Shown: positions 9,230-25,986, counted from the stretch's first letter. The stretch is 64,000 bases of DNA from Spirochaetia bacterium (GCA_965198005.1 CBDAOI010000004.1:2368001-2432000), one strand, 5' to 3'. A program made the numbers and translations. The notes: generated from the letters alone by a model not told the origin.

Positions 9230-9495
9230 TGAAAATCAGCTCGCGGCGCGCTTGCTTAATGGTGAGGAGTGCCCCCCCCCCGGCGCCGGGCAACACACCT
9301 AACTTTTCATTCACCCCAGAAACAGCTAACCGCTCCGGCCGACCGGGCGGAGCACGCGCACCTGCGTGTGCTCCTGCGCACACCCGCGCCTTCGGCATCA
9401 CTCCGTCAACTACCGGGCCAGGCGATCCAGGCGACACCCTGCGCCTGCCGCGTGGCCGTGTGGATGGCGTCGAAATCCGGAACTCTGCGGAACAA

Positions 9496-9669
9496 GGAGG
9501 TGCAAGCTGATACTCAAAGAACCACACCAGGCGCGCGGCCTGAGCCCCTGAGTTCATGAGGCACACGCCGCGCGCTCCACGATTGGAGATTGCCGTTGCT
9601 GTCTGGCCGCCCGCGTTGCGGGCGCGAGAGTGGCAGCGAAAGGCAACTCGCCGGCAGAACTCTCAAAAT
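9496..9669 (+). promoter_or_regulatory. Conserved SBP leader (uORF + hairpins), copy 1
   Basis: GGAGGTG SD, CTG-ILKEPHQ..., GC-rich hairpin, CGCCCGC-GTT-GCGGGCG, GAGAGT/ACTCTC; homologous to 18371-18546 and 25797-25968. Confidence 0.8.
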
Positions 9670-9692
9670 CAGAGTATGGAGGAGAGATCATT

Positions 9693-11474
9693 ATGAATCT
9701 TCCAAGAATTGCACACCCCTTCGTGGTTGTGCTCGTGTTCGCCCTGGTCGCGACCGGCATCTGGGCCAGCGGCGAGAGCGACCAGCCGGCCGCGGCGGTG
9801 GAGAAGGAGATGGTGCTCGACCCGTCCACCGGCGAGATGGTGGAGGCGCCGCAGTATGGCGGGAGCGTCACCTATGCCCGGCCCAACCTGGGTGAGCATA
9901 CGGATGTATGGTACATCAGCGGCTGGGCCACCCACTGGATCAGCGAGGTGGTCGAGAAGCTCGTCATCGTAGATTGGGCGCTGGACAGGAAGATAAACAA
10001 CTTGCGGACCTATGACGTGCCCTGGTCTATCTTCCGCGGGGCGTTGGCGGAGAGCTGGGAAACGCCCGACGCTACCACGATCGTCGCCCACATCCGTCAG
10101 GGCGTTCGCTGGCACGACAAGGCACCGATGAACGGTCGGGAGCTGACCGCCAGCGATGTCGAGTTCAACTTTCATCGTCTCTGGGGGCTGGGCAGCGGCT
10201 TCAGCGAAGTCAGCCCAATGTCTGGTGGGGTACACGAAATCGTGGAATCGGTAACGGCCACCGACGCCAGCACGGTTGTCTTCAAGCTGACGAGGCCAGA
10301 CCTCAACGCCCTGCCCAAGATCTTCGACCAGTGGGTTTCGCAGATCTACCCTCCGGAGGTCATCCGGGAACACGGCGACATCAAGGACTGGAGGAACCTG
10401 GTCGGCACGGGCCCCATGGAGCTGACGGACGTGGTCGAAGACGCCTCTCTGAAGTGGACCAGGGTTCCCGACTACTGGGGGTTCGACGAGAAGTTTCCGC
10501 AGAACCGTTTGCCCTACGTCGACGAGATAAACGCCCTCAAAATGCCGGATGAAGCAGCACGTCTGGCGGCCCTGCGCTCGGGCAGGGTTGATCTGCTGGG
10601 GACCGCCGGCGACTCTCAACTGAGGTCAATCGATCAGCTAAAGAGCCTGCGCGAGATCAATCCCGAGATCAATATGTGGGAGTTCGAGTTTCGCTCCGAA
10701 AACGCAACTGCCTTCAACAATGTGAACAAACCGCCCTTTGATGATATCCGGGTGCGTCGGGCCATGCAGATGGCGGTGGATGGCGAGACGATCGCGGAGA
10801 CCTTCTTCAGCGGTATTGGCGATGCGACGCCGCAGGGAACGTTTGCCAATTCCAAGATGGGGGTTGGCACGCCATTCGAGGAGTGGCCCGAAGAGATCAA
10901 ACAGTACTACCGGTACGACCCGCAACGCGCGAAGCAGCTGATGGCTGAGGCGGGCTATCCCGATGGCTTCAAGACCACTCTGTATGCCGGGCAGCGGCGC
11001 GGTTCGAGCTACGAAGAGCTACTCGCCAACTACTGGCGTGAGATTGGCGTGGAAGTCGAGATACGGACGTTCGACTCTACGCAAGGCGTTGCGCTCCGTA
11101 GAGATAATCCAGGAGGATTGATCGCCAATATCGCGGCTATCACATATGACGCAGTCTCTACCCTTAATTGGCACACGTGTGCGAATACCGGGAACCCATT
11201 CGCAGGGTGCGACCCGGAAATTGACGCTCTCTATGAGGCCGCTAACACAGCTTCCACCGTCGAGGAGGCGAATCGGTTGGCCAAAGAAGCGAATCTGCGC
11301 CTCATAGAACTGCACTGGAAGGTCGTTGGTCCAGTTACCCCACAGTTCAACGTCGCCCAGCCGTGGGTCAAGGGCTATAACGGCGAGGTCAGTCTCTCCA
11401 TATCCGGTCATTATTCTACGGTCTTGACCCGTGTCTGGATCGACCAGGATCTGAAGCGGGAGATGGGCTTCTGA
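9693..11474 (+). CDS. ABC transporter substrate-binding protein, family 5 (DppA/OppA-like)
   Basis: Signal peptide, GALAESWE, RQGVRWHDKAPMNGRELTA.DV, VGTGP, PFDDIRVRRAM; SD GGAGG. Confidence 0.95.
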   Translation: MNLPRIAHPFVVVLVFALVATGIWASGESDQPAAAVEKEMVLDPSTGEMVEAPQYGGSVTYARPNLGEHTDVWYISGWATHWISEVVEKLVIVDWALDRKINNLRTYDVPWSIFRGALAESWETPDATTIVAHIRQGVRWHDKAPMNGRELTASDVEFNFHRLWGLGSGFSEVSPMSGGVHEIVESVTATDASTVVFKLTRPDLNALPKIFDQWVSQIYPPEVIREHGDIKDWRNLVGTGPMELTDVVEDASLKWTRVPDYWGFDEKFPQNRLPYVDEINALKMPDEAARLAALRSGRVDLLGTAGDSQLRSIDQLKSLREINPEINMWEFEFRSENATAFNNVNKPPFDDIRVRRAMQMAVDGETIAETFFSGIGDATPQGTFANSKMGVGTPFEEWPEEIKQYYRYDPQRAKQLMAEAGYPDGFKTTLYAGQRRGSSYEELLANYWREIGVEVEIRTFDSTQGVALRRDNPGGLIANIAAITYDAVSTLNWHTCANTGNPFAGCDPEIDALYEAANTASTVEEANRLAKEANLRLIELHWKVVGPVTPQFNVAQPWVKGYNGEVSLSISGHYSTVLTRVWIDQDLKREMGF

Positions 11475-11565
11475 GCCAACCGCTTCGCCGTTTGCTTAAG
11501 GAGTCGCTGCGCGACTCCACGAGCTAAGGACCCCGCCTAAAGGCGGGAGTCCTGCCTGCAGAGAG

Positions 11566-11606
11566 GGGCGCCGGGAGCCGCGCTCGGAAGCGTCTTCCCG
11601 GCGCCC
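11566..11606. repeat. Intercistronic REP-like hairpin (inverted copy)
   Basis: GGGCGCCGGGA/TCCCGGCGCCC stem; loop GCGCTCGGAAGCG is the reverse complement of the loops at 19770-19810 and 27827-27869. Confidence 0.7.
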
Positions 11607-11621
11607 ATTTACCACGAAGAT

Positions 11622-12578
11622 ATGAGAGCGTACATCATCCGCCGAGTTCTGCTCCTCATACCCACCTTCTTGCTCCTCACGATTCTGGTATTCCTGTCGG
11701 TGCGCTTCCTTCCGGGGGATGCAGTAGATGCGCTGATCAGTGATATGCAATATGTCGTAGGTGATATAGACCGTGAAGCGCTCGAGCGGATGATGGGACT
11801 GGACCAGCCGATCTACGTGCAGTATGGACGCTGGCTGGCGGGCATCTTCCTGCACGGCACGCTGGGCAATTCCCTCCTGAGCGACTGGCGGGTCGAGGAG
11901 AAGATACTCGGCAGGTTGCCGACGACCGTCGAGCTGGGAGTGATGGCGATCGTAATAGGTCTGCTGATCGGGCTGCCGGTCGGCATCTACTCGGCGATGC
12001 GCCGCAATACAGCCGCCGACTACGTCGGGCGGTCGGTCGCCATCATCGGCCTGGCAACGCCCAACTTCTGGCTGGCAACCTTGATATTGACCTTTCCTGC
12101 CATCTGGTGGGCCTGGTCGCCACCGTTGACGCTCGTTCCGTTCCGCACAGACCCGTGGGACAATCTGGCTGTCTTCATCGTGCCCAGCCTGATTCTGGGC
12201 ACCTATCTGGCGGCAGCCACCATGCGGATGACGCGCACCATGATGCTGGAGGTGCTCAGGCAGGACTACGTCAGGACCGCCTGGTCCAAGGGTCTCAAGG
12301 AGCGGGTCGTCATCGTCAGACACGCCATCAAGAACGCCCTGATCCCGGTGGTCACCCTGATCGGTCTGCAGATGCCGATCCTGATCGGCGGCTCGGTGAT
12401 CATGGAGAACATCTTCGGCCTGCCGGGGCTCGGTCGCCTGATGCTCGATGCCCTAACTGACAGAGACTACCCGGTGGTCGCCGGCATAAACTTGACGTTC
12501 GCGGCCGCGGTCATGGGAATCAACCTGATGGTCGACCTGATCTACGCTGTTCTGGATCCGCGGGTCCGGTACCGCTGA
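11622..12578 (+). CDS. ABC peptide transporter permease (DppB/OppB-like)
   Basis: YIIRR..PGD, GLDQP..VQY..WL, QDYVRTA.SKGL EAA loop, LDPRVRY. Confidence 0.95.
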   Translation: MRAYIIRRVLLLIPTFLLLTILVFLSVRFLPGDAVDALISDMQYVVGDIDREALERMMGLDQPIYVQYGRWLAGIFLHGTLGNSLLSDWRVEEKILGRLPTTVELGVMAIVIGLLIGLPVGIYSAMRRNTAADYVGRSVAIIGLATPNFWLATLILTFPAIWWAWSPPLTLVPFRTDPWDNLAVFIVPSLILGTYLAAATMRMTRTMMLEVLRQDYVRTAWSKGLKERVVIVRHAIKNALIPVVTLIGLQMPILIGGSVIMENIFGLPGLGRLMLDALTDRDYPVVAGINLTFAAAVMGINLMVDLIYAVLDPRVRYR

Positions 12579-13510
12579 TGGCCGAACGAGTGCCGGACGA
12601 ACGAGCCGCCGAACGGGCAGCCGCCGCCGCGACCAGGCGACCGGAGCGCCGGTTTTTTTTGGGTAAGTGGCTGAGACGACTGGTCAAGGAGCAGCCCCTG
12701 GGTGCGTTCGGGGGCGTGGTGCTGCTGGCGCTGGTCCTGGTCAGCATCTTTGCCGGTTTCCTGGCGGGGCACGATCCCAACCAGATGACGCTGGCCGACC
12801 GGCTGCAGGGCCCGTCGGGCGAGTATCCGCTGGGCACCGACCAGCTCGGGCGCGACTTCCTGAGCCGCCTGATCTACGGGGCGCGCATCTCGCTGTTCGT
12901 CGGTCTGGCGGCAACCACGCTGCACGTGGTGGTTGCGATGCTGATAGGCGGCACCGCGGGATTCATCGGCGGCAAACTGGACCTGTTGGTGCAGCGGTTC
13001 GTCGATGCCTGGATGTCGTTCCCGGGCCTGCTGCTGTTGCTCACGATCATGTCAATCGCCGGGCAGGGGCTGCTGCAGATAATCGTGATTCTGGGGGTAT
13101 CCTCGGGCATCAGCAATTCGCGGGTGGTGCGCGGCGCGGTGATCGGGATCAAGGAGAACGACTACTTCCAGGCCGCGCAGGCGATTGGCGAGGGCATCTC
13201 CGGGACCCTGCGGCGGCACGTGCTGCCCAACATCATGGCGCCGATCATCGTGATCTTCTCGATCACCATCGGCGGCATCATCGTGGCGGAGGCGTCGTTG
13301 AGCTTCTTAGGGTTTGGCCTGCCGCCCGGGGTGCCGAGCTGGGGCGGAATGCTGAGCCGGGAAGGGCGCCAGTACATGGAGATGGCGCCGCGGCTGGCGA
13401 TCTGGCCGGGCCTGTGCCTGACCATCGTGGTGTACAGCATCAACATGTTCGGCGACGCGCTGCGCGACCTGCTCGACCCCCGGCTGCGCGGCAGCGTCGG
13501 CAGCGTCTGA
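12578..13510 (+). CDS. ABC peptide transporter permease (DppC/OppC-like)
   Basis: LGTDQLGRD.LSRLIYGARISL, HVLPN, EASLSFLG.G, PSWG.ML, GDALRDLLDPR. Confidence 0.95.
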   Translation: MAERVPDERAAERAAAAATRRPERRFFLGKWLRRLVKEQPLGAFGGVVLLALVLVSIFAGFLAGHDPNQMTLADRLQGPSGEYPLGTDQLGRDFLSRLIYGARISLFVGLAATTLHVVVAMLIGGTAGFIGGKLDLLVQRFVDAWMSFPGLLLLLTIMSIAGQGLLQIIVILGVSSGISNSRVVRGAVIGIKENDYFQAAQAIGEGISGTLRRHVLPNIMAPIIVIFSITIGGIIVAEASLSFLGFGLPPGVPSWGGMLSREGRQYMEMAPRLAIWPGLCLTIVVYSINMFGDALRDLLDPRLRGSVGSV

Positions 13511-13532
13511 CCGCCACTGTCGGCAGCCATGC

Positions 13533-13811
13533 CTATTCGTCCACTCGCCGTAGAGCTTCGTCCATCACCTGTCGCGAGAGATGAAGACCAGCGATCATCA
13601 TTTCCTTGATGACGGGCCGAGCTTTCGGGATGAGCCCTCGTCCCTTAACTGCCTTCCCGTCCCTGGCAGACACCTCTGCTGTCGCTGGGACGGCCGTCGG
13701 GTGGATGCATGGTTGGTGTACGGAGAAGCAGACTGGCGCCCTCGGTGATCGGACGCCGCCGCTCCAGCTCGTGGGCCTGCTGTTCAGTATCTTTATGCCG
13801 ACCGACCTCAT
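13533..13811 (-). pseudogene. Fused TA remnants (Phd-like start, DUF3368-like end)
   Basis: MRSVGIKIL..R start resembles Phd antitoxins; KGRGLIPKARPVIKEM...GLHLSRQVMDEALRRVDE resembles the DUF3368 C-terminus. Confidence 0.45.
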
Positions 13812-13881
13812 GGGACGTGGGGTAGCTCCTAGTAGCTACTTCGTCAAGGTGTTTCGGCATCAAGGAGCACGGCTCCTTCGG

Positions 13882-13910
13882 TTGATCAGCGCGCCGTCTC
13901 GGGTTATACT
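13882..13910 (+). promoter_or_regulatory. Sigma70 promoter, probably giving a leaderless mRNA
   Basis: TTGATC-17-TATACT, 6 nt before ATG 13917. Confidence 0.65.
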
Positions 13911-13916
13911 GCTGGT

Positions 13917-14156
13917 ATGAAAACGGCTGTGTCCCTTCCTGATGAGCTCTTTCATGCCGCGGAACGGCACGCACGAAGGTCGAACAAGTCCCGCAGTCGG
14001 CTCTACACCGAGGCGATCGCCGAGTACCTCGACCGACATACCCCTGATGAGGTCACCAAAGCTATGGACCGGGTGGTCGACCGTCTCGGCGAAACGGAAA
14101 GCGACGATTTCGTATCGCGTGCAGCGCAGCACACACTGGAACGTGTCGAATGGTAG
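13917..14156 (+). CDS. RHH/CopG antitoxin (MazE partner)
   Basis: MKTAVSLPDELF..AE..A.....SRSRLY..AI..YL. Confidence 0.9.
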   Translation: MKTAVSLPDELFHAAERHARRSNKSRSRLYTEAIAEYLDRHTPDEVTKAMDRVVDRLGETESDDFVSRAAQHTLERVEW

Positions 14157-14497
14157 ACCTTGCTCAAGGAGAGGTGTGGTGGGCCGAGTTGCCGGAGCCG
14201 GTAGGTTCCGGCCCTGGTCTGAGGCGACCGATCGTGGTGGTTCAGGGGAACTCCTTGAACCGGAGCCGGATCTCGACGGTAGTGTGCGTTCCGCTGACGA
14301 GCAACCTGGCCTGGGCGGATGCGCCCGGCAACACGGTGCTGCCGGCGACAGTCACCGGCTTGCCGAAAGACTCGGTCGCGAACTCATCGCAGATCGTCGC
14401 GCTTGATCGGCGCGCTCTGGTAGAGCGCGTACGCCGGCTCGAGGATAGGCAGTTGGCGCTCATTATCCGCGGCATCGACATCGTCCTGGGTCGCTAA
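14150..14497 (+). CDS. PemK/MazF family toxin
   Basis: GEVWWAELPEPVGS.PG.RRP.VVVQ...N, VPLTSN, GLPKDSVAN.SQI. Confidence 0.94.
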   Translation: MVDLAQGEVWWAELPEPVGSGPGLRRPIVVVQGNSLNRSRISTVVCVPLTSNLAWADAPGNTVLPATVTGLPKDSVANSSQIVALDRRALVERVRRLEDRQLALIIRGIDIVLGR

Positions 14498-14519
14498 GCC
14501 CAGGCGCTGCATAAAGGAA

Positions 14520-15395
14520 ATGCAAGAATTCAAAGACAAAGTGGCGGTGGTCACGGGAGCCGCCAGCGGTATGGGGCGTGCATTAGTGGAACGTTTTGCG
14601 CTCGAAGGCATGAAAGTGGTGCTGGCTGATGTCGAGGAAAGGGCGCTGGACACCGCAGTGGAGGAACTGCAAGGGCGGGGGTTCGAGGTAATCGGTCAAT
14701 TGGCTGACGTCTCGCAGTTGGCACAGGTTGAAGCGGTGCGCGATCTGACCCTTGAGCAATACGGTAAGGTCCATATCCTCTGCAACAATGCCGGTGTTAC
14801 CTGTGCCTGGGGAGAGACCCCAACTTGGGAAGCCACTATCCATGATTGGGAATGGGTGCTGGGTGTCAACCTTTGGGGTGTCATCCATGGCGTGCGTACC
14901 TTTCTACCGGTCATGATCGAACAGGATGAGGAAGGGCATGTGGTTAACAATTCCTCCGTGGCCGGCCTCGTAACTGGCCCCGGCGCGACCTACGAAGTGA
15001 GTAAGGTTGGCGTGACCAGGATCACGGAGGCTTTGTACTATGAACTGGCGATGTGTGAAAGCAAAGTGAAGTGCACGTTGCTGTGCCCCGGCGAAGTTGC
15101 GACCAATCTGGACCTGGCAGGACGGAACCGTCCCCCAGCCCTGAGAGATGAACATGAGGCTGGGCGTCAAGCAGCACTCGCAGCGCAAAGCCAAGGGCGC
15201 CACGAGCGCCACCAAAGGGATGGGATGGCTCCATCAGAAGTGGCCGACCGCGTGTTGAATGCCATCAAGGAGGAAAAGTTCTACCTCATCACAGAGCCTA
15301 ATCCAGCCTCGCTGGTAAGAATCAAGGATAACGTACGCGTTCGCATGGAATCCATCATCGCTGAACGCAACCTCCCTCTACCCCGTCATCGTTGA
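14520..15395 (+). CDS. SDR family oxidoreductase
   Basis: TGAASGMG, NNAG, YEVSK. Confidence 0.92.
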   Translation: MQEFKDKVAVVTGAASGMGRALVERFALEGMKVVLADVEERALDTAVEELQGRGFEVIGQLADVSQLAQVEAVRDLTLEQYGKVHILCNNAGVTCAWGETPTWEATIHDWEWVLGVNLWGVIHGVRTFLPVMIEQDEEGHVVNNSSVAGLVTGPGATYEVSKVGVTRITEALYYELAMCESKVKCTLLCPGEVATNLDLAGRNRPPALRDEHEAGRQAALAAQSQGRHERHQRDGMAPSEVADRVLNAIKEEKFYLITEPNPASLVRIKDNVRVRMESIIAERNLPLPRHR

Positions 15396-15765
15396 TGCGG
15401 GAATAGAACGACAGGCATCGCCGCAGGGTCGCCTCTCGGGCAGCGCGTCCCGAATAGCGAGCGTCACGATTTTAAGTGTTGCGCCTTCAGGCCCGTCGAA
15501 ACGGGCTACTGTTGCGGTGCCACCATCTGGTAGGCCGGTCGGCGCCGCATCCCACGGCCGGCCATTCCGACCTTTGAATCGTTGGCGCCGCCACGGCGCT
15601 CACAGCCGCCGTGATTGCCTATTGACGTGTTTGCCACAGGTGTGCCATGGTAAGCGCCACGGGTTTTGAACGGATGCAAATGACACGTGGTTACACCACT
15701 CAGCACTGCCACCGGTTAGCGCCCCAAGACCGACGCCCGAGGCGCCGCCCCGCAGGACCGTAGCC

Positions 15766-16275
15766 ACATCAAGGATTGGCGGAACCTGGTCGGCACGGGG
15801 CCGATGGAGCTCACTGACGTGGTCGAAGGCGCCTCTCTGAAGTGGACCCGGGTGCCCGACTACTGGGGGTTCGACGAGAAGTTCCCCCAGAACCGCTTGC
15901 CCTACGTCGACGAGATAAGCGCCCTCGACATGTCGGATCCTGCGGCGCGTCTGGCGGCACTGCGCTCGGGCAAGGTGGATATGCTGGGGACTGTCGGCGA
16001 CTCTCAAGTGAGGTCAATCGATCAGATGAAAAGCCTGGACCAGACCAATCCCGAGATCAATACGTGGGGCTACCAGTTTCGGTCTGAACACGCATTTGCG
16101 CCCAACAACATCAGCACACCGCCATTCAATGACATCCGCGTGCGGCGGGCCATGCAGATGGCGCTGGATCTGGAGACGATCAGTGAGACCTACTTCAGCG
16201 GTTTGGCCGATCCGACTCCGCAGGGGTTCTTGAACAATGCCAAGCAGGGGATTGGCACGCCATTCGAAGAGTGGC
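15766..16275 (+). pseudogene. Family-5 SBP, internal fragment
   Basis: Paralogous to the SBP at 9693 (IKDWRNLVGTGP...GTPFEEW); both ends missing. Confidence 0.85.
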
Positions 16276-16368
16276 ATCAACCTGACGTTCGCGGCCGCGG
16301 TGATGGCAATCAACCTGATGGTCGACCTGATCTACGCCGTTCTGGATCCGCGGGTCCGGTACCGCTGA
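16273..16368 (+). pseudogene. DppB-like permease, C-terminal fragment
   Basis: Near-identical to 12483-12578 (GINLTFAAAVM...LDPRVRYR). Confidence 0.85.
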
Positions 16369-17245
16369 TGGCACTGATGGGTGAACGAGTGACGGCCGAA
16401 CGGGCAGCCGCCGCGGCGCCGAAGCGACCGGAGCGCCGGTTTTTTTGGGTAAGTGGCTGAGACGACTGGTCAAGGAGCAGCCCCTGGGTGCGTTCGGGGG
16501 CGTGGTGCTGCTGGCGCTGGTCCTGGTCAGCATCTTTGCCGGTTTCCTGGCGGGGCACGATCCCAACCAGATGACACTGGCCGACCGGCTGCAGGGCCCG
16601 TCGGGCGAGTACCCGCTGGGCACCGACCAGCTCGGGCGCGACTTCCTGAGCCGGCTGATCTACGGGGCGCGCATCTCGCTGTTCGTCGGTCTGGCAGCGA
16701 CCACGCTGCACGTGGTGGTTGCGATGCTGATAGGCGGCACCGCGGGGTTCATCGGCGGCAAACTGGACCTGTTGGTGCAGCGGTTCGTCGATGCCTGGAT
16801 GTCGTTCCCGGGCCTGCTGCTGTTGCTCACGATCATGTCGATCGCCGGGCAGGGGCTGCTGCAGATAATCGTGATTCTGGGGGTATCCTCCGGTATCAGC
16901 AATTCGCGGGTGGTGCGCGGCGCGGTGATCGGGATCAAGGAGAACGACTACTTCCAGGCCGCGCAGGCGATCGGCGAGCGCACCTCCGGGACCCTGCGGC
17001 GGCACGTGCTGCCCAACATCATGGCGCCGATCATCGTGATCTTCTCGATCACCATCGGCGGCATCATTGTGGCGGAGGCGTCGTTGAGCTTCTTAGGGTT
17101 TGGCCTGCCGCCCGGGGTGCCGAGCTGGGGCGGGATGCTGAGCCGGGAAGGGCGCCAGTACATGGAGATGGCGCCGCGCTTGGCGATCTGGCCGGGCCTG
17201 TGCCTGACCATCGTGGTCTACAGCATCAACATGTTCGGCGACGCC
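16368..17245 (+). pseudogene. DppC-like permease (frameshift in a T-run, 3' truncated)
   Basis: Near-identical to 12578-13460; T7 at 16440 versus T8 at 12653; cut off after MFGDA. Confidence 0.88.
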
Positions 17246-17592
17246 CATCCTTCGAGTTGAGCGTGTGCGCCGATGAAGAAATCTGGCAGCGGGACCAGGG
17301 GCGCCACCGTTCCTTGCTGCTTTCGGCGCCGCTCGCGGTACCGGCGATAGGCGGCCGCACATCCGGCTGATGCGGCCGCCGGAAGGTCGAGGGTCTGCAC
17401 GCCCCACGACCGCAGGCGACCGGCTGCCAACTCCGGCTGCCGGTCACCGACACCGACCTCGGCAATGCTGACCGCATTCGCGCCGGCGCCATCACCGACA
17501 ACACCTTCGGCGATCGTCGAAATCGCCCACTCGTGGAACGGTGAGCGCGGCTGAGACGCGTAGATCAGAACGTTGGTGTCGAGCAGGATCAC
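17246..17592 (-). CDS. PIN-domain (VapC-like) toxin, C-terminus probably truncated
   Basis: ILLDTNVLI, SIAEV, LPDFFIGAHA. Confidence 0.85.
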
Positions 17593-17822: not shown

Positions 17823-18370
17823 AATGGGAATTTTCCACCCTTCGCCGCATCTGTCAAGCTGACCCGGGTGCGGCGTGCCAAGCAGCCGTTCCGTCCGACC
17901 GGGCGGCGCACGCCGTACCTGCGTGTGCTGTTCCAACAGGTCGACGAGGAACTCTGGCGCTGATGCGCATCTGTCCGGACATCTCCGGGTACAGCCACTT
18001 CAGGCGAGGGATGCCGGAGGCGGTGCGAACCGTGACCCGGGCCCGGTCGGTGTTGGTGGCGGCCATCCTCCTGGGCGAGTGGGTGCCGGGTTGGCGGCCA
18101 TCCGCCGTCGGCGCCGGTCGGGAGCGGCACACCACCCCGCATCGCGTTGGCACGCAGGTGCGGACGCCCGTCGAGCGGTCGGTGTTGGCCTGATGGGACG
18201 CACCCGCGCCACGCGCTGGGCACGCCACAACACCGCCGGCACCCAGACCAGACCCTATTCTGGTCCGAAAAAGCGGACCAGCGGGCGATGCCTGTGCATC
18301 GCTTTTCATGGTCTTCCGTATCACGCAGTGACCGTGCCGACTCTATCAATTGCCGAAACCTACAGAAAAT

Positions 18371-18546
18371 GGAGGTGCAAATGATACTCAAAGAACCGCA
18401 CGCGCGCGCGGCGTGAGCCCGGGTGAACCCGGTGAGTCACACGCCGCGCGCTTCAGGAAGTTGACTCTATCTGGCTGGTCGCCTGCGTTGCGGGCGCGAG
18501 AGTAGCCAGGAAGCGGCAATCCGCTTCGCAATACTCTCGAAAAATC
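18371..18546 (+). promoter_or_regulatory. Conserved SBP leader (uORF + hairpins), copy 2
   Basis: GGAGGTG SD; uORF 18381-18416 MILKEPHARAA; 12-bp stem GCGCGCGGCGTG/CACGCCGCGCGC; downstream multi-stem. Confidence 0.85.
18381..18416 (+). CDS. Putative leader peptide MILKEPHARAA
   Basis: Strong SD, conserved with a synonymous change in copy 3. Confidence 0.6.
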   Translation: MILKEPHARAA

Positions 18547-18563
18547 CACATACGGAGAAACGT

Positions 18564-19737
18564 ATGAACATTGTAAAAATCAGAATGACCTTCGCGATTG
18601 CGTTGGTCCTCGCCCTGACCGCAACCGGCCTCTGGGCCGCCGGCGCAGATGAGGAGCCGGCAGCCGCCGCCGACAAGAAGTATGTAACCGACCCCACAAC
18701 CGGCAAGGTGGTGACTGCGCCAGAGTATGGCGGGACAATAACCTTCGCCCGAAAAGAAGAGCCGGCGGGTCCTGACGCCGTGCTCAGTGGTTTATGGGTG
18801 CTAGACTACGTCGGTGGCGTTCTAGAGAAGCTGGCCATGGCGGACTGGGCAACGCCCAGAGACAAATTTGACTTCGTAGGTTATGCAGTGCCTCTATTCG
18901 CCTTAAAAGGGGCCCTGGCGGAAAGCTGGTCGCAGCCCGACCCACTGACGTATGTCGTCAAAGTCCGCCAGGGCGTTCACTGGCACGATAAGGCACCGAT
19001 GAACGGTCGGGAGCTGACTGCCGATGATATCGTATATAACTATCACCGAATCTTGGGACTCGGCAGCGGGTTCACCGAACCTAGCGAATTTGCCACCACT
19101 AGCTGGGCCGGTGTGCAAGTGGAATCGATAACGGCCACCGACAAATGGACGGTTGTTTTTAAGCTGAAGGAGCTAAACCTCCGTGCGCTGGCTGCTATCC
19201 TCGACGGCCACATCGTCTGGATATACCCCCCCGAGGTAATCAAGGAACACGGGGACGTTACGGATTGGAGGAACCTGGTCGGCACCGGACCCTTTATGCT
19301 GACTGACTGGACCGAGGGCAGCTCTGTCACCTGGGACAAGAACCCTGACTACTGGGGCTACGACGAAAAATACCCGGAGAACCGCCTGCCCTATGTCGAC
19401 CAATTAAGGGCTCTGCTTATGCCCGAGGTGGCAACAATGTTGGCGGCACTGCGCACAGGTAGGGTTGATCGTGGATACGAATTAAGGAGTCTCGACCAGG
19501 TAGAGAGCCTCCAGCGCACTAACCCCGAAATCGTGATATGGCCATTTTCCAATCGGTCGGATAATGCTTTCGGTATGAACGTTCAGTTGCCGCCCTTTGA
19601 CGACATCAGGGTGCGCAAGGCACTGCAGATGGCAATAAACCTCGAGGAAATTAACAATGCCTTCTACAAGGGTTATGCAGATGTGACACCCCCGCCTCTG
19701 GGTTGATAGTGAGCTGAAGGAGGCAATGGGTCGATAG
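18564..19737 (+). pseudogene. Family-5 SBP with internal deletion
   Basis: Intact N-terminal ~375 aa, then a jump at ~19690 to the C-terminal RLWVDSELKEAMGR in another frame. Confidence 0.88.
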
Positions 19738-19769
19738 AGGGAGCGAATCCCTACTGACCACGCAAAAAA

Positions 19770-19810
19770 GGGGGCTGGGGGGTTGCGCTTCCGAGCGCGT
19801 CCCAGCCCCT
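19770..19810. repeat. Intercistronic REP-like hairpin
   Basis: GGGGCTGGG/CCCAGCCCC stem, loop GCGCTTCCGAGCGCG. Confidence 0.7.
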
Positions 19811-19833
19811 CACTCCTCATTGATAGGTGTTTC

Positions 19834-20636
19834 GTGAGAGCCTATATTATCAGGCGATTATTGCTCATCATCCCCACCATGTTCATATTGAGCATCCTGG
19901 TCTTTCTCTCGGTCCGCTTCATCCCCGGAGATGTAGTAGACGTAATGATGGGTAGGATGGAATACCAAACGATGGGGGCGCAACCATTGAGCTTGGTTTG
20001 ATGGCAATCCTCATCGGGCTGGTGATCGCGTTGCCGGTCGGCATCTACTCGGCGATTCGCCAGGATACCGTCGCCGACTTCCTGGGGCGCTCGGTCGCCA
20101 TCGTCGGCCTGGCCACGCCGAACTTCTGGCTCGGCATAATGGTCATGATCTACCCAGCCATCTGGTGGGGCTGGGCGCCGCCGCTGGAGCTGGTTTCTTT
20201 CACAGAGGACCCGCTGGGGAATCTGGCGGTGTTCGTCATTCCCAGCCTGATTCTGGGAACGGCCGCTGCTGCCGCCACCATGCGGATGACGCGCGCCATG
20301 ATGCTGGAGGTGCTCCGGCAGGATTTTATCAGGACGGCCTGGGCGAAGGGCTTGCGGGAGCGGGCCGTGGTGATCCGACACGCGGTCAAGAATGCCCTGA
20401 TCCCGGTGGTGTCCCTGATCGGCCTGCAGTTGCCGATTCTGGTGGGGGGCGCCGTGATCATGGAGAACATCTTCAACCTGCCGGGCCTCGGCCGCCTCCT
20501 GCTGAATGCCCTCAATGAGAGAGATTACCCGATGGTCTCCGGCATCAACCTGTTCTTCGCCACCGGGGTGGTGCTGATCAACCTGCTCATCGACTTGGTC
20601 TACGCCGTCTTGGACCCCAGGGTCCGCTATGACTGA
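19834..20636 (+). pseudogene. DppB-like permease with internal deletion/frameshift
   Basis: Paralog of 27894-28853; the segment between ..YQTMG and IELGLMA is missing at ~19985. Confidence 0.87.
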
Positions 20637-20837
20637 CACGGCGGTGCTGCGCCGGGTGGAGCGGGCGCCGGGTGGAGCGGGCGCCCGGTGCGGCGGAGGC
20701 AACGAAGCCGGCGGCGTGGCCAAAGCCGGGTCGCAGTCGGTCGTCCGGGTAAGGAAGCCGCGGCGGGAATTGACATTTACGGCACTTGTTGCATTCGTGA
20801 CGTTTGTTGGTTACCGTTGGAAAGCAAGTACGGGAGG

Positions 20838-21305
20838 ATGTTGATGGATGATCACGGGCCGGTCAGTTTCATGGAAACGACGTTGCCAGATGATCGGGAC
20901 GTGGCGCTCGCTGCGCGCTCGAGCCGGAAGCTGGCGGCGCTGAACGACAGCTCCGAGCCGGTGCCGGCACGGTTCGGGATGGTCGAGACGGAAACCGTAC
21001 AGCTTCCCGCTCCGGCGATGCGGCTTCTCCGCGAGATCCTGGACCAGATGGCACGCGGCCATGCGGTAACGCTGGCGCCCGTCCATGCCGAGTTGACCAC
21101 GCGGCAGGCTGCCGATCTCCTGCAAGTGTCCCGGACTCATCTGGTGCAACTGCTCAAGGACGGAAAAATCCCCTGCCGCAAGGTCGGGTCGCACCGGCGC
21201 GTGCGAACGGAGGATATCATCGCCTATCGTCGTGCCACCCAGTCTCGCCGGCGGGACGCGCTGAACGAGTTGACTGCCTACGATCAAGAGCTTGGGCTGC
21301 AGTAG
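20838..21305 (+). CDS. Excisionase-like HTH DNA-binding protein (antitoxin)
   Basis: ELTTRQAADLLQVSR.HLV.LL..G.IP..KVGSHRRV; SD GGGAGG. Confidence 0.9.
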   Translation: MLMDDHGPVSFMETTLPDDRDVALAARSSRKLAALNDSSEPVPARFGMVETETVQLPAPAMRLLREILDQMARGHAVTLAPVHAELTTRQAADLLQVSRTHLVQLLKDGKIPCRKVGSHRRVRTEDIIAYRRATQSRRRDALNELTAYDQELGLQ

Positions 21306-21308
21306 CGA

Positions 21309-21878
21309 ATGCAGCACCGGGCGGCGCTGCTCGACGCCAATGTATTGTATCCGGCGGGCGTCCGGGACATCTTGTTGCGTCTGGCGGATCGGGGCCTGTT
21401 CAGACCGTTGTGGACGGCACAGATCCATGACGAGTGGATCCAAAACCTTCTCTCTGACCGCCCTGAACTGACGGCCGACAAGCTGCAGCGGACAAGGTCG
21501 ACGATGGACGAACACTTTCCCGAGGCCATGGTCATCAGCTACGAAAGCCTCATACCAGGGCTTGATCTCCCCGACCCGAGAGACCGCCACGTCCTGGCGG
21601 CAGCGATCTGCGCCCGAGCGGATGTGATTGTAACCCGGAACCTGCGTGACTTTCCGGCGGACAGATTGACGCCGCACGGGCTGGCGGCGCAGCATCCCGA
21701 TGAGTTCATATTGGGTCTCCTTGATGCACACCATGGAGACGTGCTCGCAGCGGTTCGCGATCATCGCACCGCGTTGAGGAATCCACCACGATCGCCTGAG
21801 GAGCATTTGGCGGCCCTCGAGAGCGGCGGCTTGGTGCAATCCGCCTCCATACTCCGCGATTACATGGACACAATATAG
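21309..21878 (+). CDS. PIN-domain protein (toxin partner of the HTH protein)
   Basis: LLDANVLYP, LPDPRDRHVLAAAI, IVTRNLRDFP. Confidence 0.92.
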   Translation: MQHRAALLDANVLYPAGVRDILLRLADRGLFRPLWTAQIHDEWIQNLLSDRPELTADKLQRTRSTMDEHFPEAMVISYESLIPGLDLPDPRDRHVLAAAICARADVIVTRNLRDFPADRLTPHGLAAQHPDEFILGLLDAHHGDVLAAVRDHRTALRNPPRSPEEHLAALESGGLVQSASILRDYMDTI

Positions 21879-22010
21879 CTCGACATGCGCCGAGGTCGAG
21901 TGGATCAGCGCCAGCGCCAAGCACCAACTCGACGACGCCGTTGACAGTTTGCCGCGGGCGTGCGACCGTCCACCGCTCGCACGGCCCACGGTCAGCGCAG
22001 TGACCGGTTG

Positions 22011-22153
22011 CCGGTGACGCCGGTGACGTCCGAGCGCTTGACCGCTGTTGCAGCGTCGGCTAGGGTGACCACCGTGGGAGCCTCACCGATGCGGCTGATG
22101 CCTGACGTGCCTGACGACACGCGCTTGACGGCTGTCGCAGCGTCGGCTATGGT
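22011..22153 (+). repeat. Tandem duplicated promoter-like units (period ~87 nt)
   Basis: TTGACC-17-TAGGGT (22038-22066) and TTGACG-17-TATGGT (22125-22153) with near-identical spacers. Confidence 0.65.
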
Positions 22154-22304
22154 GCCTGCCTTGGGGATTGTGAGCGATGCGCATGATGCATGACGATACC
22201 TACCCGCACAGCCACTGGTTAGCCTCGAAGCGGCCGGTGATACGTCTGTCTACCCCCCCCGTACCCCCCTGTACCCTTTAGAGATTAGAAAGTTCGTCAG
22301 GGAC

Positions 22305-22588
22305 TGCTAGAATCCCAGGCGGGCAAGGCAGCCTACCGGGAGCAACCTTGAGCCCCCCGCGCCGTAGAGCGCCCGGGGGGGACGTGTGCCCCGGTAGGAG
22401 TGCCGCGATGGATACCCAGTGAGGAGCTTCCCACCGGGCGGGGCCCGGCGTGGTCATGTAAGAAACTGTTGTTTCTTAGGAGTAGTGCCAGGTGGGAAGG
22501 TGCCAGGAGCACCGGAGCACCGGAGCACCAGTACAGGGGTGGAACGACATCGTGGCAGCCGAGCTCCACAATCTCTGGAGGTGACAGG
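22305..22588 (+). ncRNA. Putative IS110 bridge-RNA-like noncoding end
   Basis: Extended -10 TGcTAGAAT, then two stem/internal-loop/stem structures upstream of the IS110 transposase. Confidence 0.55.
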
Positions 22589-23280
22589 ATGTCAACCGAA
22601 CAGACCGAACAGACCGAACAGTGGTTCGTGGGTATCGATTGGGCGACCCAGCAACATCAGATTTGTGTGCTTGAGGATGACGGCGCGGTGGTCGCGGAAC
22701 GGCAGGTGGCCCATAGCGGCGCCGGCATCGCCGACTTGTGCGCATGGTTGCACGAGCTATCCGGCGGGCACCCGGAGCGCGTGCACGCGGGGATCGAGGT
22801 GCCGCATGGCGCGGTGGTCGAGATGCTGCTGGAGCGGGAGGTGCAGGTGTACGCGATCAATCCCAAGCAGCTGGATCGATTTCGTGACCGGTTTACGGTG
22901 GCCGGCGCCAAGGATGACCGGCGCGACGCGCGGGTGTTGGCAGACTCGCTGCGCACCGACCGACGCAGCTTTCGTCAGTTGCAGGTGCAGGCACCGCCGG
23001 TGATCGAGTTGCGGGAATGGTCGCGCCTGACTGCCGAGTTGCAGGAGGAACGCAACGGGCTGATCAATCGCATGCGCGAGCAACTGCGCCGCTACTACCC
23101 GCAGCTGATCGAGCTGGGCGGTGACCTCGGCGCGGGCTGGGTTCTGGAGTTGTGGGAGAAGGCTTCGACGCCGGCGGAGGCAGCGCGGGTCCGGAAGGCG
23201 TCGGTCGCGGCCATCCTGAAGCGCAACCGCATCCGGCGCCATGATGCTGTCAGTGTGCTGCGCATCCTGCGGCTACCGGC
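22589..23280 (+). mobile_element. IS110 family transposase, truncated (DEDD RuvC domain + part of coiled coil)
   Basis: FVGIDWA...H, GIEVPHG, INPKQLDRFR, AKDDRRDARVLA; the C-terminal Tnp_20 domain is absent. Confidence 0.9.
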
Positions 23281-23284
23281 GGCA

Positions 23285-23712
23285 TCGGCGGCTCGCGCAT
23301 CGCGCGCAGTGCCGTCATCGGCATCAGGGAGAACATGTATCTGCAGGCGGCGGAGGCGTTTGGCGCGAGCGCGACCAGGACCATCTTCCGTCACGTACTG
23401 CCCAACATCATGGCGCCCATGATCATCACCTTCACCGTGACCATTGGCGGCGTCATCATGGCCGAGGCTTCGCTGAGCTTCCTCGGTTTCGGCCTTCCCC
23501 CGAATGTCGCCACCTGGGGAGGCATGCTCAGCAACGACGGGCGCCGCTTCATGGAGTTGGCGCCATGGCTGGCCATCTGGCCGGGCCTCTCCCTGACCAT
23601 CGTGGTTTACAGTCTGAATATGCTCGGTGATGCGCTGCGAGACCTGCTCGATCCCCGGCTGAAGGGCGGTGTGGGTCGTCTGGGTGCCAATAGTCGCGCC
23701 AAGTCGGGCTAG
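23285..23712 (+). pseudogene. DppC-like permease, C-terminal half
   Basis: SRIARSAVIGIRENMYLQAA..., HVLPN, EASLSFLGFG, GDALRDLLDPR. Confidence 0.87.
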
Positions 23713-23799
23713 TAGCTAGCTAGTAGTCGCCAGGTAACGTCGCTGTGGTACGGCTTGGGCGCTGTTGGCGGGGCATGCTCCCACGCGTATCATGGTGGC

Positions 23800-24186
23800 A
23801 TGGGTGCGTTCATGGTCGAGTGTAAGCTGTGGGATGTCGCCAAGAGCGGTCCTGAGAAGACGATCGCCGCGGTGCTGGTGGACACCGATTCGGAGTACAC
23901 CTGGCTTCCGGAGGACGTTCTCCTGGCGGCGGGCGTCACAGTCGCAAAGAAGGACCTCGCGTTCGTGATGGCCAACGGCATGACCATCACGCGAGATGTT
24001 GGCTATGCCTTCCTTTCCAGTGGGGAGTTCGAGACGGTGGACGAGGTTGTGTTCGCCCGCTCGGAAGATCTGAGTTTGCTCGGCGCCAGAACGCTGGAGG
24101 GATTCGCCGCGCGGGTGGATTCGCGCGAGAAGCGTTTGGTCGCCGCAGGGCCGATTCCTGTCGCAGGTACTGTCGCGGTCCACTGA
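23800..24186 (+). CDS. Clan AA aspartyl-protease-like protein
   Basis: VLVDTDSEYTWLP (DTG-like), LLGARTLEG; promoter TTGGCG-17-TATCAT ends 6 nt before the ATG. Confidence 0.75.
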   Translation: MGAFMVECKLWDVAKSGPEKTIAAVLVDTDSEYTWLPEDVLLAAGVTVAKKDLAFVMANGMTITRDVGYAFLSSGEFETVDEVVFARSEDLSLLGARTLEGFAARVDSREKRLVAAGPIPVAGTVAVH

Positions 24187-24224
24187 CTCCACCGTGGGGC
24201 GACACAAGTGTCGCGGGGGCGTGG

Positions 24225-24358
24225 TTTGCCGCCGCCGTCAGGATGGTGGTCAGGCCATGGAATCCGGCGGGCAGGCGGAACAGGCGGTTGGCGGCGCCGA
24301 ACAGGCCCTCGCGGAGCAGCATCGGCAGTGCCGCAAGGACGCCGCCGTAGGCGACCGC
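24225..24358 (-). mobile_element. Probable transposase remnant
   Basis: VAYGGVLAALPMLLREGL...F.LP.GFHGLTTIL resembles a putative transposase segment (from memory of the family, not searched). Confidence 0.4.
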
Positions 24359-24359
24359 G

Positions 24360-24422
24360 GACCTATAACACGTCAACGCTTATGACACTCTGTTCCCCTG
24401 ACAGCCGCTCGCCGAGAATTGC
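24360..24422. repeat. 63-nt dispersed repeat, copy 2 (motif A)
   Basis: 61/63 identical to 9167-9229. Confidence 0.9.
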
Positions 24423-24480
24423 CGCGGACTGAACCGATTGTACGGGGCGTGGTATGCTGTGGTGGAATGGAGGATAGCCC

Positions 24481-25287
24481 ATGGCCAGTTCGCTGCTCGC
24501 TCCCGCCAAGGTCCACTACCCCTCATCCGACGGCCGGCCGATGGCGGAAAGCGACTTTCAGCGCACGCCGCTGACCTACGCCGTCGACCGGCTGCGATAC
24601 CACTTTCGCAACCGCCGGGACGTGTACGTCTCCGGCAACCTGTTGCTCTACTACCAGGAGGGGAATCCGCGGGCGGTAGTGGCGCCCGACGTGTTCGTGG
24701 TGCGAGGCGTGGCCAACGCCGACCGCTCCAGCTATCGGCTGTGGGAGGAGCGCAAGGTGCCTGACTTCGTGCTGGAGATTACCTCGCGCACGACGCACCG
24801 CGAGGACCAGGGACGCAAGCGCGAGTTGTACCGTGCGCTTGGGGTGCGGGAGTACTGGCAGTACGACCCGACGGGCGACTATCTGGAGCCTCCGCTGCAG
24901 GGATTGGAGTTGCGCGCGGGGGAGTACCGGCGGCTGCCGGGGCGGGAGTTGGCGGACGGCACGCTGGCGCTGGCGAGCGGCGTGCTGGGGCTGGAGTTGC
25001 GGCTGACGGAGCGGGGGCTGCGGTTCCACGATCCGGACACCGGGCAGGACCTGCCGAACCTTGGGGAGACCGACGAGGCGCGGGAGCGCGAGCGGCAGGC
25101 GCGGGAGCGCGAGCAGCAGGCGCGGGAGCGCGAGCAGCAGGCGCGGCAAGCGGCGGAGACGCGCCTCGCGCAGGAAGCGGCAGCCCGCGCAGCCGCGGAA
25201 GCACGGGTAGCGGAGCTGGAGGCGGTGTTGCGCCGGGAGCGCGGTAGCGATTCCGGTCAGGACGGCAATCCAGCGGCACCTCGGTAG
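24481..25287 (+). CDS. Uma2 family (PD-(D/E)XK) endonuclease-like protein with coiled-coil repeats
   Basis: YPSSDGRPMAES, VAPDVFVV, PDFVLEITS, GVREYWQYDP; REREQQA repeats. Confidence 0.93.
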   Translation: MASSLLAPAKVHYPSSDGRPMAESDFQRTPLTYAVDRLRYHFRNRRDVYVSGNLLLYYQEGNPRAVVAPDVFVVRGVANADRSSYRLWEERKVPDFVLEITSRTTHREDQGRKRELYRALGVREYWQYDPTGDYLEPPLQGLELRAGEYRRLPGRELADGTLALASGVLGLELRLTERGLRFHDPDTGQDLPNLGETDEARERERQAREREQQAREREQQARQAAETRLAQEAAARAAAEARVAELEAVLRRERGSDSGQDGNPAAPR

Positions 25288-25321
25288 GTGGTAGGGTGTG
25301 GTCGGGTAAGCACCGTTCTGG

Positions 25322-25452
25322 TTGACCCGTGTCACGGGTCCGTGCTACGGTCACACTGTAGAGCCATGAGCTGTCAGATTTCTTCGACTTCTTCGACGCA
25401 GGTGATTGCCCCGAGTCGCGGGTCCGTGCTACAGTCGCACGGTAGAGCCATG
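25322..25452 (+). repeat. Tandem 38-nt direct repeat with promoter-like boxes
   Basis: 25331-25368 versus 25415-25452; TTGACC-18-TACGGT and TTGCCC-18-TACAGT; palindrome GACCCGTG-T-CACGGGTC. Confidence 0.65.
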
Positions 25453-25796
25453 GACGGTCCCTGTAGCGCCCACAACAAGTTAGCGCTTATGCCTGTACCC
25501 CCCCCCCCCCCCGACTTTTCGAACCGAGAAACAACTAACCGCTCCGGCTGATCGCCCTGTACGCGACCGCGCGCGCGCCGTCGCCTTCACCACCGCCGTA
25601 GCTATCGGTGGCGCCGGCTCGGTCCATCGCCGAACCGGCATGCGGGCCGCTCGCGCCGTTCCCAGCGGCCGCAACGGTCCCGGATCCCCGCCCGCGACCG
25701 ACTGCCAGCAAAACCCACCGCCGACGTTGCCGGTCATTCGGACTCGCTGCTTCGCCGACTACGACCCCGCGTGGCGTTGTGACGTGAGGAAGAAGA

Positions 25797-25968
25797 GGAG
25801 GTGAAGATGATACTGAAAGAACCGCACCCGCGCGCGGCGTGAGCCCGGGTGAATCCGTTGAGTCACACGCCGCGCGCTTTTAGTGAATTTGACTCAGACT
25901 GGCCGTCCGCGTTGCGGGCGTGAGAGTAGCCAGGGAGCGGCAAGTCGCTCCGCAATACTCTCAAAATC
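25797..25968 (+). promoter_or_regulatory. Conserved SBP leader (uORF + hairpins), copy 3
   Basis: GGAGGTG SD; uORF 25807-25842 MILKEPHPRAA; 12-bp stem followed by TTTT; downstream multi-stem. Confidence 0.85.
25807..25842 (+). CDS. Putative leader peptide MILKEPHPRAA
   Basis: Strong SD, matches the copy 2 peptide at 10 of 11 residues. Confidence 0.6.
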   Translation: MILKEPHPRAA

Positions 25969-25986
25969 CAAGCAAGGATACTAACG

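Follow-up and report, generated by a model that had tools for sequence, protein, structure and literature searches.

A two-module leader with a short upstream reading frame and a predicted pseudoknot precedes family-5 binding-protein operons in one genus of Spirochaetia

Most of what is known about leader-peptide control comes from single operons of model bacteria. In the tnaC-tna leader of E. coli, an arrest peptide (tnaC, 24 residues) is combined with an adjacent Rho site. In the ampC and pyrBI leaders of E. coli, a ribosome standing beside a hairpin blocks its formation; these hairpins are intrinsic terminators with U-tracts and, in ampC, the frame is a bare ATG-stop. In Borrelia, the ospE, ospF and erp genes, coding for paralogous exported proteins, are said to share a conserved 5′ block, the upstream homology box, which is reportedly a promoter/operator region and flanks genes that reportedly recombine; to our knowledge, no translated upstream open reading frame (uORF) or RNA pseudoknot has been described for it. 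In toiL-topAI of E. coli, a short uORF lies in a long 5′ region whose RNA is remodeled by ribosome occupancy, a structure occludes the main ribosome-binding site, and premature Rho-dependent termination is part of the output; the available part of that report presents the system as a general sensor of translation status and not as amino-acid-specific (Baniulyte and Wade, eLife 2025, PMC12121999). Start-stop sites in E. coli are, in the available part of their description, single cases inside coding regions with no associated RNA fold (Meydan et al., bioRxiv 10.1101/520783). Here, we describe a leader with a uORF found upstream of genes for family-5 substrate-binding proteins (SBP) in a stretch of 64,000 nucleotides (nt), the window, from a Spirochaetia bacterium (GCA_965198005.1 CBDAOI010000004.1:2368001-2432000). 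Coordinates are window positions and all features given lie on the + strand.

On comparison of the genomes that carry it, this leader is a two-module 5′ region limited to one genus of sponge-associated spirochaetes and heading about half of some 140 peptide-type (family-5) binding-protein operons. Module 1 comprises a strong ribosome site, a micro-gene (Met-Ile/Val-Leu-Lys-Glu-Pro, then a stop or His-Ala-Arg-Ala-Ala-stop) and a 12-bp GC hairpin, P1. Module 2, a predicted pseudoknot that precedes the SBP ribosome site by about 25 nt, also occurs in a sister family of leaders. In the copy taken as reference (copy 2), the Shine–Dalgarno (SD) sequence GGAGGTG at 18371-18377, with its purine-rich block at −10 to −4 before the start kept in 140 copies, is followed by the uORF MILKEPHARAA (18381-18416; 11 codons and TGA, reading ATG ATA CTC AAA GAA CCG CAC GCG CGC GCG GCG TGA). 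Hairpin P1 (18404-18451) has its 5′ arm at 18404-18415, formed by the final codons of the uORF up to the second base of the stop, an apical stem CCGGG/CCCGG, and its 3′ arm at 18440-18451. Immediately 5′ of that 3′ arm is GAGTCA (18434-18439), and its partner TGACTC (18462-18467) comes after an A/T-rich linker (mean 70% A+T). Module 2 then covers 18475-18538. A first-pass annotation of this DNA had found the SD and the uORF in three stretches of the window, all of which are present as described; its element corresponds to the first of the two modules only, and the pseudoknot was missed.

A pool of 140 distinct copies, of which 76 come from the source genome and 64 from congeners, was used to analyze the uORF. 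At the aligned start, 116 of them have ATG, 12 GTG, and 4 TTG (132 of 140), with a purine-rich SD 5-6 nt upstream, and 124 copies have both a start and a stop at codon 7 (TAG, 21) or at codon 12 (TGA, 103). Variation follows a three-base period. The third-position entropies of codons 3 to 6 are 0.77, 0.26, 0.85, and 0.93, with first and second positions at or below 0.19, and the third-position total is attained by only 15 of the 3003 choices of five sites. Of the variant codons at positions 2-6, 93 are synonymous and 34 non-synonymous (the possible single changes being 10 and 35, respectively), and at codons 3-6, encoding L-K-E-P, the numbers are 89 and 13; the pooled copies are related, so that these variant codons are not independent events. 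Eight of the 10 possible synonymous single changes at codons 2-6 are observed. The synonymous variants reach frequencies of 20-25% and are present in the source genome and in the others alike, whereas non-synonymous variants are rare. A 6-nt deletion in two copies leaves the frame intact. Purifying selection on Leu-Lys-Glu-Pro would produce such a pattern, and the coding character proposed for the frame in the first-pass annotation is thereby upheld.

Codon 2 behaves differently. It is ATA in 134 of the 140 copies and never ATC, whereas in long open reading frames isoleucine is encoded by ATC in 73% of cases and by ATA in 11%; something besides the amino acid therefore also constrains this codon. 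Codon 7 is hypervariable, with CAC, TAG, TAC, TGG, GAG, CAA, and TTG (His, stop, Tyr, Trp, Glu, Gln, and Leu) all seen. An association of codon 7 with the GTG of the SD was looked for by inspection of the copies of the source genome, and none appeared. We did not observe any run of codons for one regulating amino acid, and the conserved MILKEP(HARAA) part has no repeated residue. Besides the copies without a start, two kinds of change count against a translated frame: 2-nt deletions in a GC repeat shift it in three copies, and the TGA is lost in one.

The 12-bp stem of P1 (GCGCGCGGCGTG/CACGCCGCGCGC) occurs in all three window copies and, behind copy 3, is followed by TTTT, both as first annotated. 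It uses uORF bases 24-35, each pair being kept in 131-136 of the 140 copies, and its length changes only at the tip, where the apical stem is lost or a 22-nt insert is present. The stop codon does lie inside the hairpin, as had been proposed, and P1 is very stable. The z-scores of the whole-leader fold are −4.99 for copy 2, −2.55 for copy 3, and −1.95 for copy 1. Among one-sided changes, G-U pairs are about as frequent as mismatches, so that the support for P1 is sequence conservation and stability, not covariation.

The pairing between GAGTCA and TGACTC had been presented as competing with P1. Since GAGTCA adjoins the 3′ arm of P1 and shares no base with it, the two pairings cross in a pseudoknot-like manner; they could coexist and are not strictly exclusive. 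Its four central pairs are kept in 134-137 of 140 copies, and the terminal A-U becomes G-C in 3. The change to GGCA/TGCC in copy 1, which had been taken as compensatory, is a single case. The part of the proposal that stands comes from constrained folds. In 63 copies, a terminating ribosome was mimicked by forcing the SD, the uORF, and 14 further bases to be single-stranded; in these predictions, P1 is gone, GAGUCA pairs with UGACUC, the mean minimum free energy goes from −86.2 to −53.8 kcal/mol, and the second domain is unaffected.

In the second half of the leader, RNAalifold pairs CUGGC with GCCAG and RNAfold pairs GAGAGUA with UACUCUC. The two helices cross and thus form a pseudoknot. In copy 2, the outer stem pairs CTGGT (18475-18479) with GCCAG (18505-18509) and encloses an inner hairpin (18480-18496) and strand E, GAGAGTA (18498-18504), which pairs with E′, TACTCTC (18532-18538), beyond a hairpin P3 (18510-18527). 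Within this first type of leader (type 1), the pairs of module 2 hardly vary (94.6% of cells paired), and the loops and joining strands (GTT, GAGAGTAG, GGCAA) are nearly invariant. These conserved single-stranded bases suggest a partner. The module lies a median of 25 nt before the SBP start. A competition of the uORF sequence AUACUC for strand E was considered and rejected; it could form no more than 5 bp, and the sister family described below does not conserve the match.

Variation in the pseudoknot is found in SBP paralogues that lack the type-1 leader. For 59 such paralogues with a covered N-terminus, the upstream regions form clusters with 34, 11, and 5 members, the others being singletons. 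The largest cluster carries the sister leader (type 2; loci L204-L223 of the source genome, G000, outside the window, for example G000:C2:465290-465392 and G000:C4:944672-944774), with the same strand pair (GAGAGUAG ... UACUCUC), a longer outer stem (UGUCG-CCCUCGC with GCGAGGG-CGGCA), and an inner hairpin resembling that of type 1. Eighteen of these leaders were aligned; the loop-to-tail helix E-E′ shows changes on both sides at four of its eight pairs (G-C replaces A-U at two positions, in 3 sequences and in 7, and there is one change each from U-A to C-G and from C-G to U-A), with no one-sided variation and 93.8% of cells paired. For the whole type-2 structure, none of 500 shuffles equals the covariation score, and controls in which the strands were slid pair in 36-47% of cells. 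The pseudoknot is a new structured RNA with covariation support and without a known family.

A joint alignment of both types has in common AGGAGGTGC-N3-ATG, the inner hairpin, strand E, and strand E′. Type 1, by this alignment, looks like type 2 with a longer uORF and with P1 between the start codon and GACUC. A strong SD with a micro-uORF is present 13-97 nt before the knot in 19 of 26 type-2 leaders. The micro-uORFs are ATG-TAG (4), M-(R/Q/E)-N (3), V-K-(L/P) (4), M-x-P-K-T-G-Y-D (6), MKSPYD (1), and one frame of 49 codons. The cluster of 11 paralogues has a third, unrelated upstream design (for example, upstream of G000:C4:2246518 and G000:C1:231218), made of two small hairpins, CCGGAGTATCCGG and GGGTACCGGGA...TCCCGA, and then GAGGAGGAG.

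The number of copies is much larger than the three of the first-pass annotation, which are real, and far exceeds chance expectation. The source genome (4.89 Mb, 66% G+C, 90% complete) holds about 80-93. A blastn search of it with copy 2 gives 86 high-scoring segment pairs (HSPs), 80 of them with the 5′ end, and R1, a covariance model that spans the full leader with 190 positions, gives 93 matches; copies with the second domain only also exist. A scan of the genome contigs with an exact pattern gave at least 72 loci, from which about one-third, chance matches in unrelated GC-rich genomes, were dropped. With the protein of copy 3, tblastn detects 143 SBP HSPs of at least 350 residues (median identity 47%) in the source genome. 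The leader is upstream of 70 of these and not of the other 73. It does, then, head a large paralogous transporter family, as had been claimed; that it precedes every intact family-5 SBP holds for the window, where all three genes have it, the truncated one included, and does not hold genome-wide.

Matches to R1, and to a model restricted to the second half (R2), are limited to eight genomes, all from one genus, namely the source genome and 7 of 10 congeners, the R1 counts being 93 in the source genome, 63 in G005, 43 in G001, 36 in G006, 33 in G003, 5 in G007, 2 in G008, and 1 in G004. R1 has no match in 13 genomes of the sister genus. R2, searched under stricter filters that let only 54 candidates per genome be scored, has none in another 81 genomes of the order. 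No homologue that would give deep covariation for module 1 thus came from these searches. A model of the type-2 leader (R3) matches the source genome and six of the seven type-1 congeners, not G004, with 57 matches in the former (a few of them weak and on type-1 domains) and 52, 28, 17, 14, 7, and 4 in the latter; in the sister genus, there is one marginal match (E 2e-4). From the counts of both types, nearly every SBP paralogue has a leader of this design. Both leader families sit in the genomes that carry the SBP expansion. In each of the near-complete congeners G009 and G010, which carry no leader, there is a single close SBP homologue (47% identity in one and 44% in the other) with a short plain 5′ region, so that leader and expansion of the gene family go together.

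Comparisons with described RNAs and with the literature gave no counterpart. None of the 4227 models of Rfam 15, riboswitches included, has a match anywhere in the window at the gathering score, which answers a check proposed in the first-pass annotation; at E ≤10 in 18300-18600, the best of 4 matches has 14.3 bits against a cut-off of 37. Literature searches on sponge spirochaete binding proteins, on the combination of uORF, pseudoknot, and binding protein, and on the peptide string returned nothing on the leader.

The leader stands out from its surroundings in the identity profile (mean pairwise identity per column among 58 intact paralogues). Identity is 0.53-0.67 in the 288 nt upstream of the leader, 0.82-0.90 in the leader, 0.62 in the spacer before the SBP start, 0.88 in the core of the signal peptide, and 0.37-0.82 (mostly 0.45-0.75) in the SBP body. 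For copies from other species, the most similar leader and the most similar SBP body of the source genome belong to the same gene in only 1 of 25. In nine orthologous pairs, the bodies agree at roughly 90-100% in each 100-nt bin beyond about +300 or +400, the identity over the first 300 nt is 66-89%, the similarity breaks near +200 to +300, and the DNA upstream of the leader is unalignable in seven of the nine. The printed alignments include one collinear pair with locally patched divergence and two pairs in which the similarity switches inside the signal-peptide/linker region, one of these involving the counterpart of the window copy-3 gene in G005. A conserved block thus lies on diverged genes, and the histories of block and body disagree, as in a shared 5′ homology cassette. 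Judged from these alignments, the 5′ block is swapped between paralogues faster than species diverge. Such exchange helps to explain the uniformity of the leader and the conserved synonymous sites in the signal peptide.

Two further observations concern the same region. The SBP body of L148 (G007) is 95-100% identical per 100-nt bin to that of G000:C1:4929 from +300 to +1500, with leaders 72-79% identical and unalignable upstream DNA, which, from the sequences, suggests a recent transfer or conversion of the gene body alone. The region coding for the signal peptide (26010-26080 in the window) is about 0.88-0.9 identical in all paralogues even at synonymous sites and contains a possible hairpin, GGTTGCG ... 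CGCAACC; the recombination breakpoints come just after it.

The three window copies align over about 190 nt, from the SD GGAGGTG to ACTCTC, about 25 nt before the SBP start. In copy 3 (25797-25962, where E′ ends), the SD is at 25797-25803, the uORF MILKEPHPRAA-TGA at 25807-25842 (with CTG at codon 3 and CCG at codon 8, unlike copy 2), and P1 at 25830-25877. Copy 1 (9496-9664, again to the end of E′) is a diverged variant with the SD at 9496-9502, a frame of 14 codons at 9507-9551, and the 3′ arm of P1 at 9564-9575. There, CTG at 9507 replaces ATG and one base is added, so that the frame reads LILKEPHQARGLSP-TGA; both changes recur in one sister copy elsewhere in the source genome. The three downstream genes code for family-5 binding proteins (PF00496, E 1e-64, 8e-64, and 1e-49). 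They are at 9693-11474 behind copy 1, at 18564-19706 behind copy 2 (SD GGAG and ATG within 18554-18566, ATG at 18564), and at 25987-27795 behind copy 3. The copy-2 gene is truncated (380 residues), its Pfam match stopping at profile position 246 of 368, and a gene for an IS110-type transposase (22400-23422) is found 2.7 kb downstream. Behind copies 1 and 3, the SBP gene is followed by genes for OppB/OppC-type permeases. Between the SBP stop and the first permease gene, there is a GC-rich hairpin without U-tract (11475-11621 and 27796-27893), the outline of which is kept across paralogues; it could set the SBP:permease ratio.

We favor, with confidence somewhat short of even, a translation-coupled cis-regulatory leader acting on the elongation or the fate of the transcript. 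A ribosome translating the uORF or terminating on it must melt P1, translation and P1 folding excluding each other by their geometry and in the constrained folds, and the freed 3′ side is then predicted to be able to pair GAGUCA with UGACUC. The leader may in this way report how well ribosomes initiate and run on the nascent leader, and set how much transcript reaches the SBP gene or survives into it. Premature Rho-dependent termination, or processing at or after P1, is likelier than an intrinsic terminator or masking of the SBP site; in one version, the uORF ribosome could prevent P1, shield the nascent RNA from Rho, or both. An effect on elongation or survival is favored since neither masking nor an intrinsic terminator finds support, since Rho (698 bits) and RNase Y (658 bits) are both encoded, and since the DNA 100-350 nt upstream of the uORF is C-rich (C 0.39-0.42, G 0.26-0.31), C exceeding G only there. 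Within 200-600 nt upstream of the leader, 43 of its 80 copies have 8-28 consecutive C on the same strand; runs of G are never seen there. In the window, a run of 15 C occupies 25498-25512, 299 nt upstream of the copy-3 leader, and C tracts precede copy 1 at 9272-9281 and 8955-8962. A sigma-70 promoter scan of 25200-26100 gave no site. The leader is overlapped by contigs from RNA libraries of four studies, labeled sponge metagenome, and one such contig joins module 2 to the SBP start of a paralogue; in another subfamily, the contigs extend upstream by up to a median of 72 nt. These contigs, which show neither ends nor levels and might include DNA carry-over (uncovered bins were not interpreted), fit weakly with co-transcription of leader and SBP.

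Several observations weigh against this translation-coupled reading. A U-tract (at least 4 U in 8 nt) follows P1 in only 29 of 101 copies, with 2 U or fewer in 60, and a search for one after module 2 found none; with no recognizable terminator, the leader is not a classical attenuator. The switch through the SBP ribosome site fares no better. The predicted unpaired probability of that site is 0.49 in the free leader, again 0.49 when a ribosome occupies the uORF stop, and 0.48 when it occupies the start (63 copies), and it stays at 0.52 when strand E is blocked (56 copies). The rut-like (Rho utilization) stretch is absent after the type-1 uORF, the stop being followed by a GC hairpin instead. 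The start is missing in 8 of the 140 copies, window copy 1 included, and the G005 counterpart of the window copy-3 gene has GTC for ATG on a body 93-100% identical per 100-nt bin from +400; the uORF is thus dispensable in some copies. Covariation within the type-1 family is thin, its copies being 80-95% alike, with 7 double-change pairs for 2.4 expected, none of which favors P1 beyond G-U. Part of the conservation of the leader may, moreover, stem from recombination and not from selection alone.

Some candidates for the output were tried and set aside. P1 as an intrinsic terminator is not supported, its U-tract being inconsistent; a terminator scan of the + strand of 25200-26100 also found none. 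Masking of the SBP ribosome site is rejected on the two constrained-fold predictions given above; on blocking the uORF, access shifts by more than 0.1 in 4 of the 63 copies (3 up and 1 down). E′ does not qualify as an anti-SD, as blocking E leads it to pair with the SBP site in no more than 7 of 56 copies. Searches of the 90%-complete genome for RNase J, RNase E/G, CsrA, and a second paralogue of the single NusG gene found none of them. An RNase J-type 5′ stabilizer, and CsrA or a second NusG as partner, were discarded on these grounds.

Other explanations can be set against the same data. The leader might be a constitutive expression cassette, in which ribosome site, micro-ORF, and structures protect or boost highly expressed SBP messages without any switching, by ribosome loading, as a 5′ stabilizer, or as a barrier to nuclease or Rho. 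This is doubtful, and several points speak for it. Unrelated micro-uORFs, down to ATG-TAG, at the same place in the sister family suggest that ribosome binding matters more than the peptide; neither a terminator nor a change in SBP-site access is predicted; the A-rich and non-preferred first codons of the uORF (ATA, 11% of Ile; AAA, 22% of Lys) fit an open initiation region; and RNA-library contigs bearing the leader have a high summed depth (a weak point). However, type 1 shows selection on the residues L-K-E-P and not just on the presence of a start, RNase J, on which a Bacillus-type 5′ stabilizer relies, was not found in the 90%-complete genome, a transcription start upstream of the poly-C tract could place the uORF 200-500 nt behind the 5′ end, and the single-stranded pseudoknot bases hint at a partner. 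Module 2 might instead be the real sensor, a riboswitch or a protein-binding site, with the uORF-hairpin as an accessory or lineage-specific addition. The occurrence of module 2 in both families with a covarying helix, its nearly invariant loops and joining strands, its position just before the SBP start, and the domain-2-only copies are consistent with this. We nevertheless consider it unlikely, as there is no Rfam match, as blocking E leaves predicted SBP-site access unchanged and E′ seldom pairs with the site, as CsrA was not found and NusG has one gene only, and as any one ligand shared by about 140 transporters, whose substrates presumably differ, could only be a global signal.

Still less probable is that the leader and the signal-peptide block are simply a homology patch for the exchange of 5′ control regions, the uORF being incidental. 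The discordance of leaders and bodies, the break inside the first 300 nt of genes with nearly identical bodies, and signal-peptide synonymous sites as conserved as the rest are all what a patch would give; such exchange, however, explains neither the codon periodicity and synonymous excess of the uORF, nor indels limited to the tip of P1, nor the compensatory pairs of the pseudoknot, and shuffling is compatible with a regulatory role. The arrest-peptide sensor suggested in the first-pass annotation, in which nascent MILKEPHARAA would stall the ribosome on a small molecule as in tnaC or erm, is now very improbable. It keeps in its favor the conservation of residues 2-6 at the protein level, a stop adjoining RNA structure, and a proline at position 6 directly followed by the stop in 21 of 140 copies, Pro-stop being a slow termination context in E. 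coli. Against it, codon 7 is hypervariable and reads TAG in those same 21 copies, 8 copies have no start, the peptide of 6 or 11 residues has no conserved C-terminal context, and the homologous sister leaders have uORFs of 1, 3, or 8 codons with unrelated sequences. Six residues are too few for the exit-tunnel constriction, and the short form cannot reach it.

Beyond the translation-coupled leader itself, a wider proposal can be made, though we regard it as rather speculative and on balance unlikely. Nearly all of the about 140 peptide-type uptake operons might form a regulon in cis on one leader design, with the uORF reading ribosome status, the pseudoknot perhaps binding a global signal, and recombination reshuffling the 5′ modules. 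If this were true, translation status would tune uptake for all operons at once, and module swapping would do so operon by operon, the poly-C tracts upstream also taking part. One leader design is copied before about 3% of the genes of a genome in an uncultured lineage, and such a design could give a symbiont global, translation-linked control of nutrient uptake. The natural variants (intact uORF, start-less, early stop, start-stop), some on near-identical genes, are a ready-made mutant series, and the shuffling of modules shows regulatory DNA evolving separately from the genes that it heads.

Compared with the described systems, the leader shares with trp/his/leu-type attenuators a leader frame having its own ribosome site and start; the run of codons for an amino acid and the intrinsic terminator are missing. 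Where those attenuators have an antiterminator, GAGUCA/UGACUC folds only with the 5′ arm of P1 blocked, abuts P1, and shows thin covariation. As with tnaC, there is a conserved short leader peptide, proline beside the stop in some copies, no intrinsic terminator, and Rho in the genome; in contrast to tnaC, there are 6 or 11 residues, no C-rich, G-poor stretch after the stop, and conservation at residues 2-6 only, which does not extend through a C-terminal stalling part. With ampC and pyrBI, the leader has in common a ribosome site and a very short frame that abuts or enters the 5′ arm of a GC hairpin, an ATG-stop in its sister family, and the same logic of reading ribosome availability, but U-tracts follow P1 in a minority of copies. 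Start-stops as described in the available part of the E. coli work recur in 4 of 26 sister-family leaders, whereas the type-1 uORF has 6 or 11 codons. Unlike toiL, as far as the available part of its description goes, and unlike erm-type leaders, predicted access to the main ribosome site is unchanged here by a uORF ribosome; and one design serves about 140 operons, not one, with a separate pseudoknot module. The Borrelia upstream homology box offers a likeness in a spirochaete family of paralogous exported proteins, in the conserved 5′ flank, and in evolutionary behavior, the organisms and proteins being unrelated. As it lacks defining features of each of these systems, the leader is filed as a new variant of leader-uORF control.

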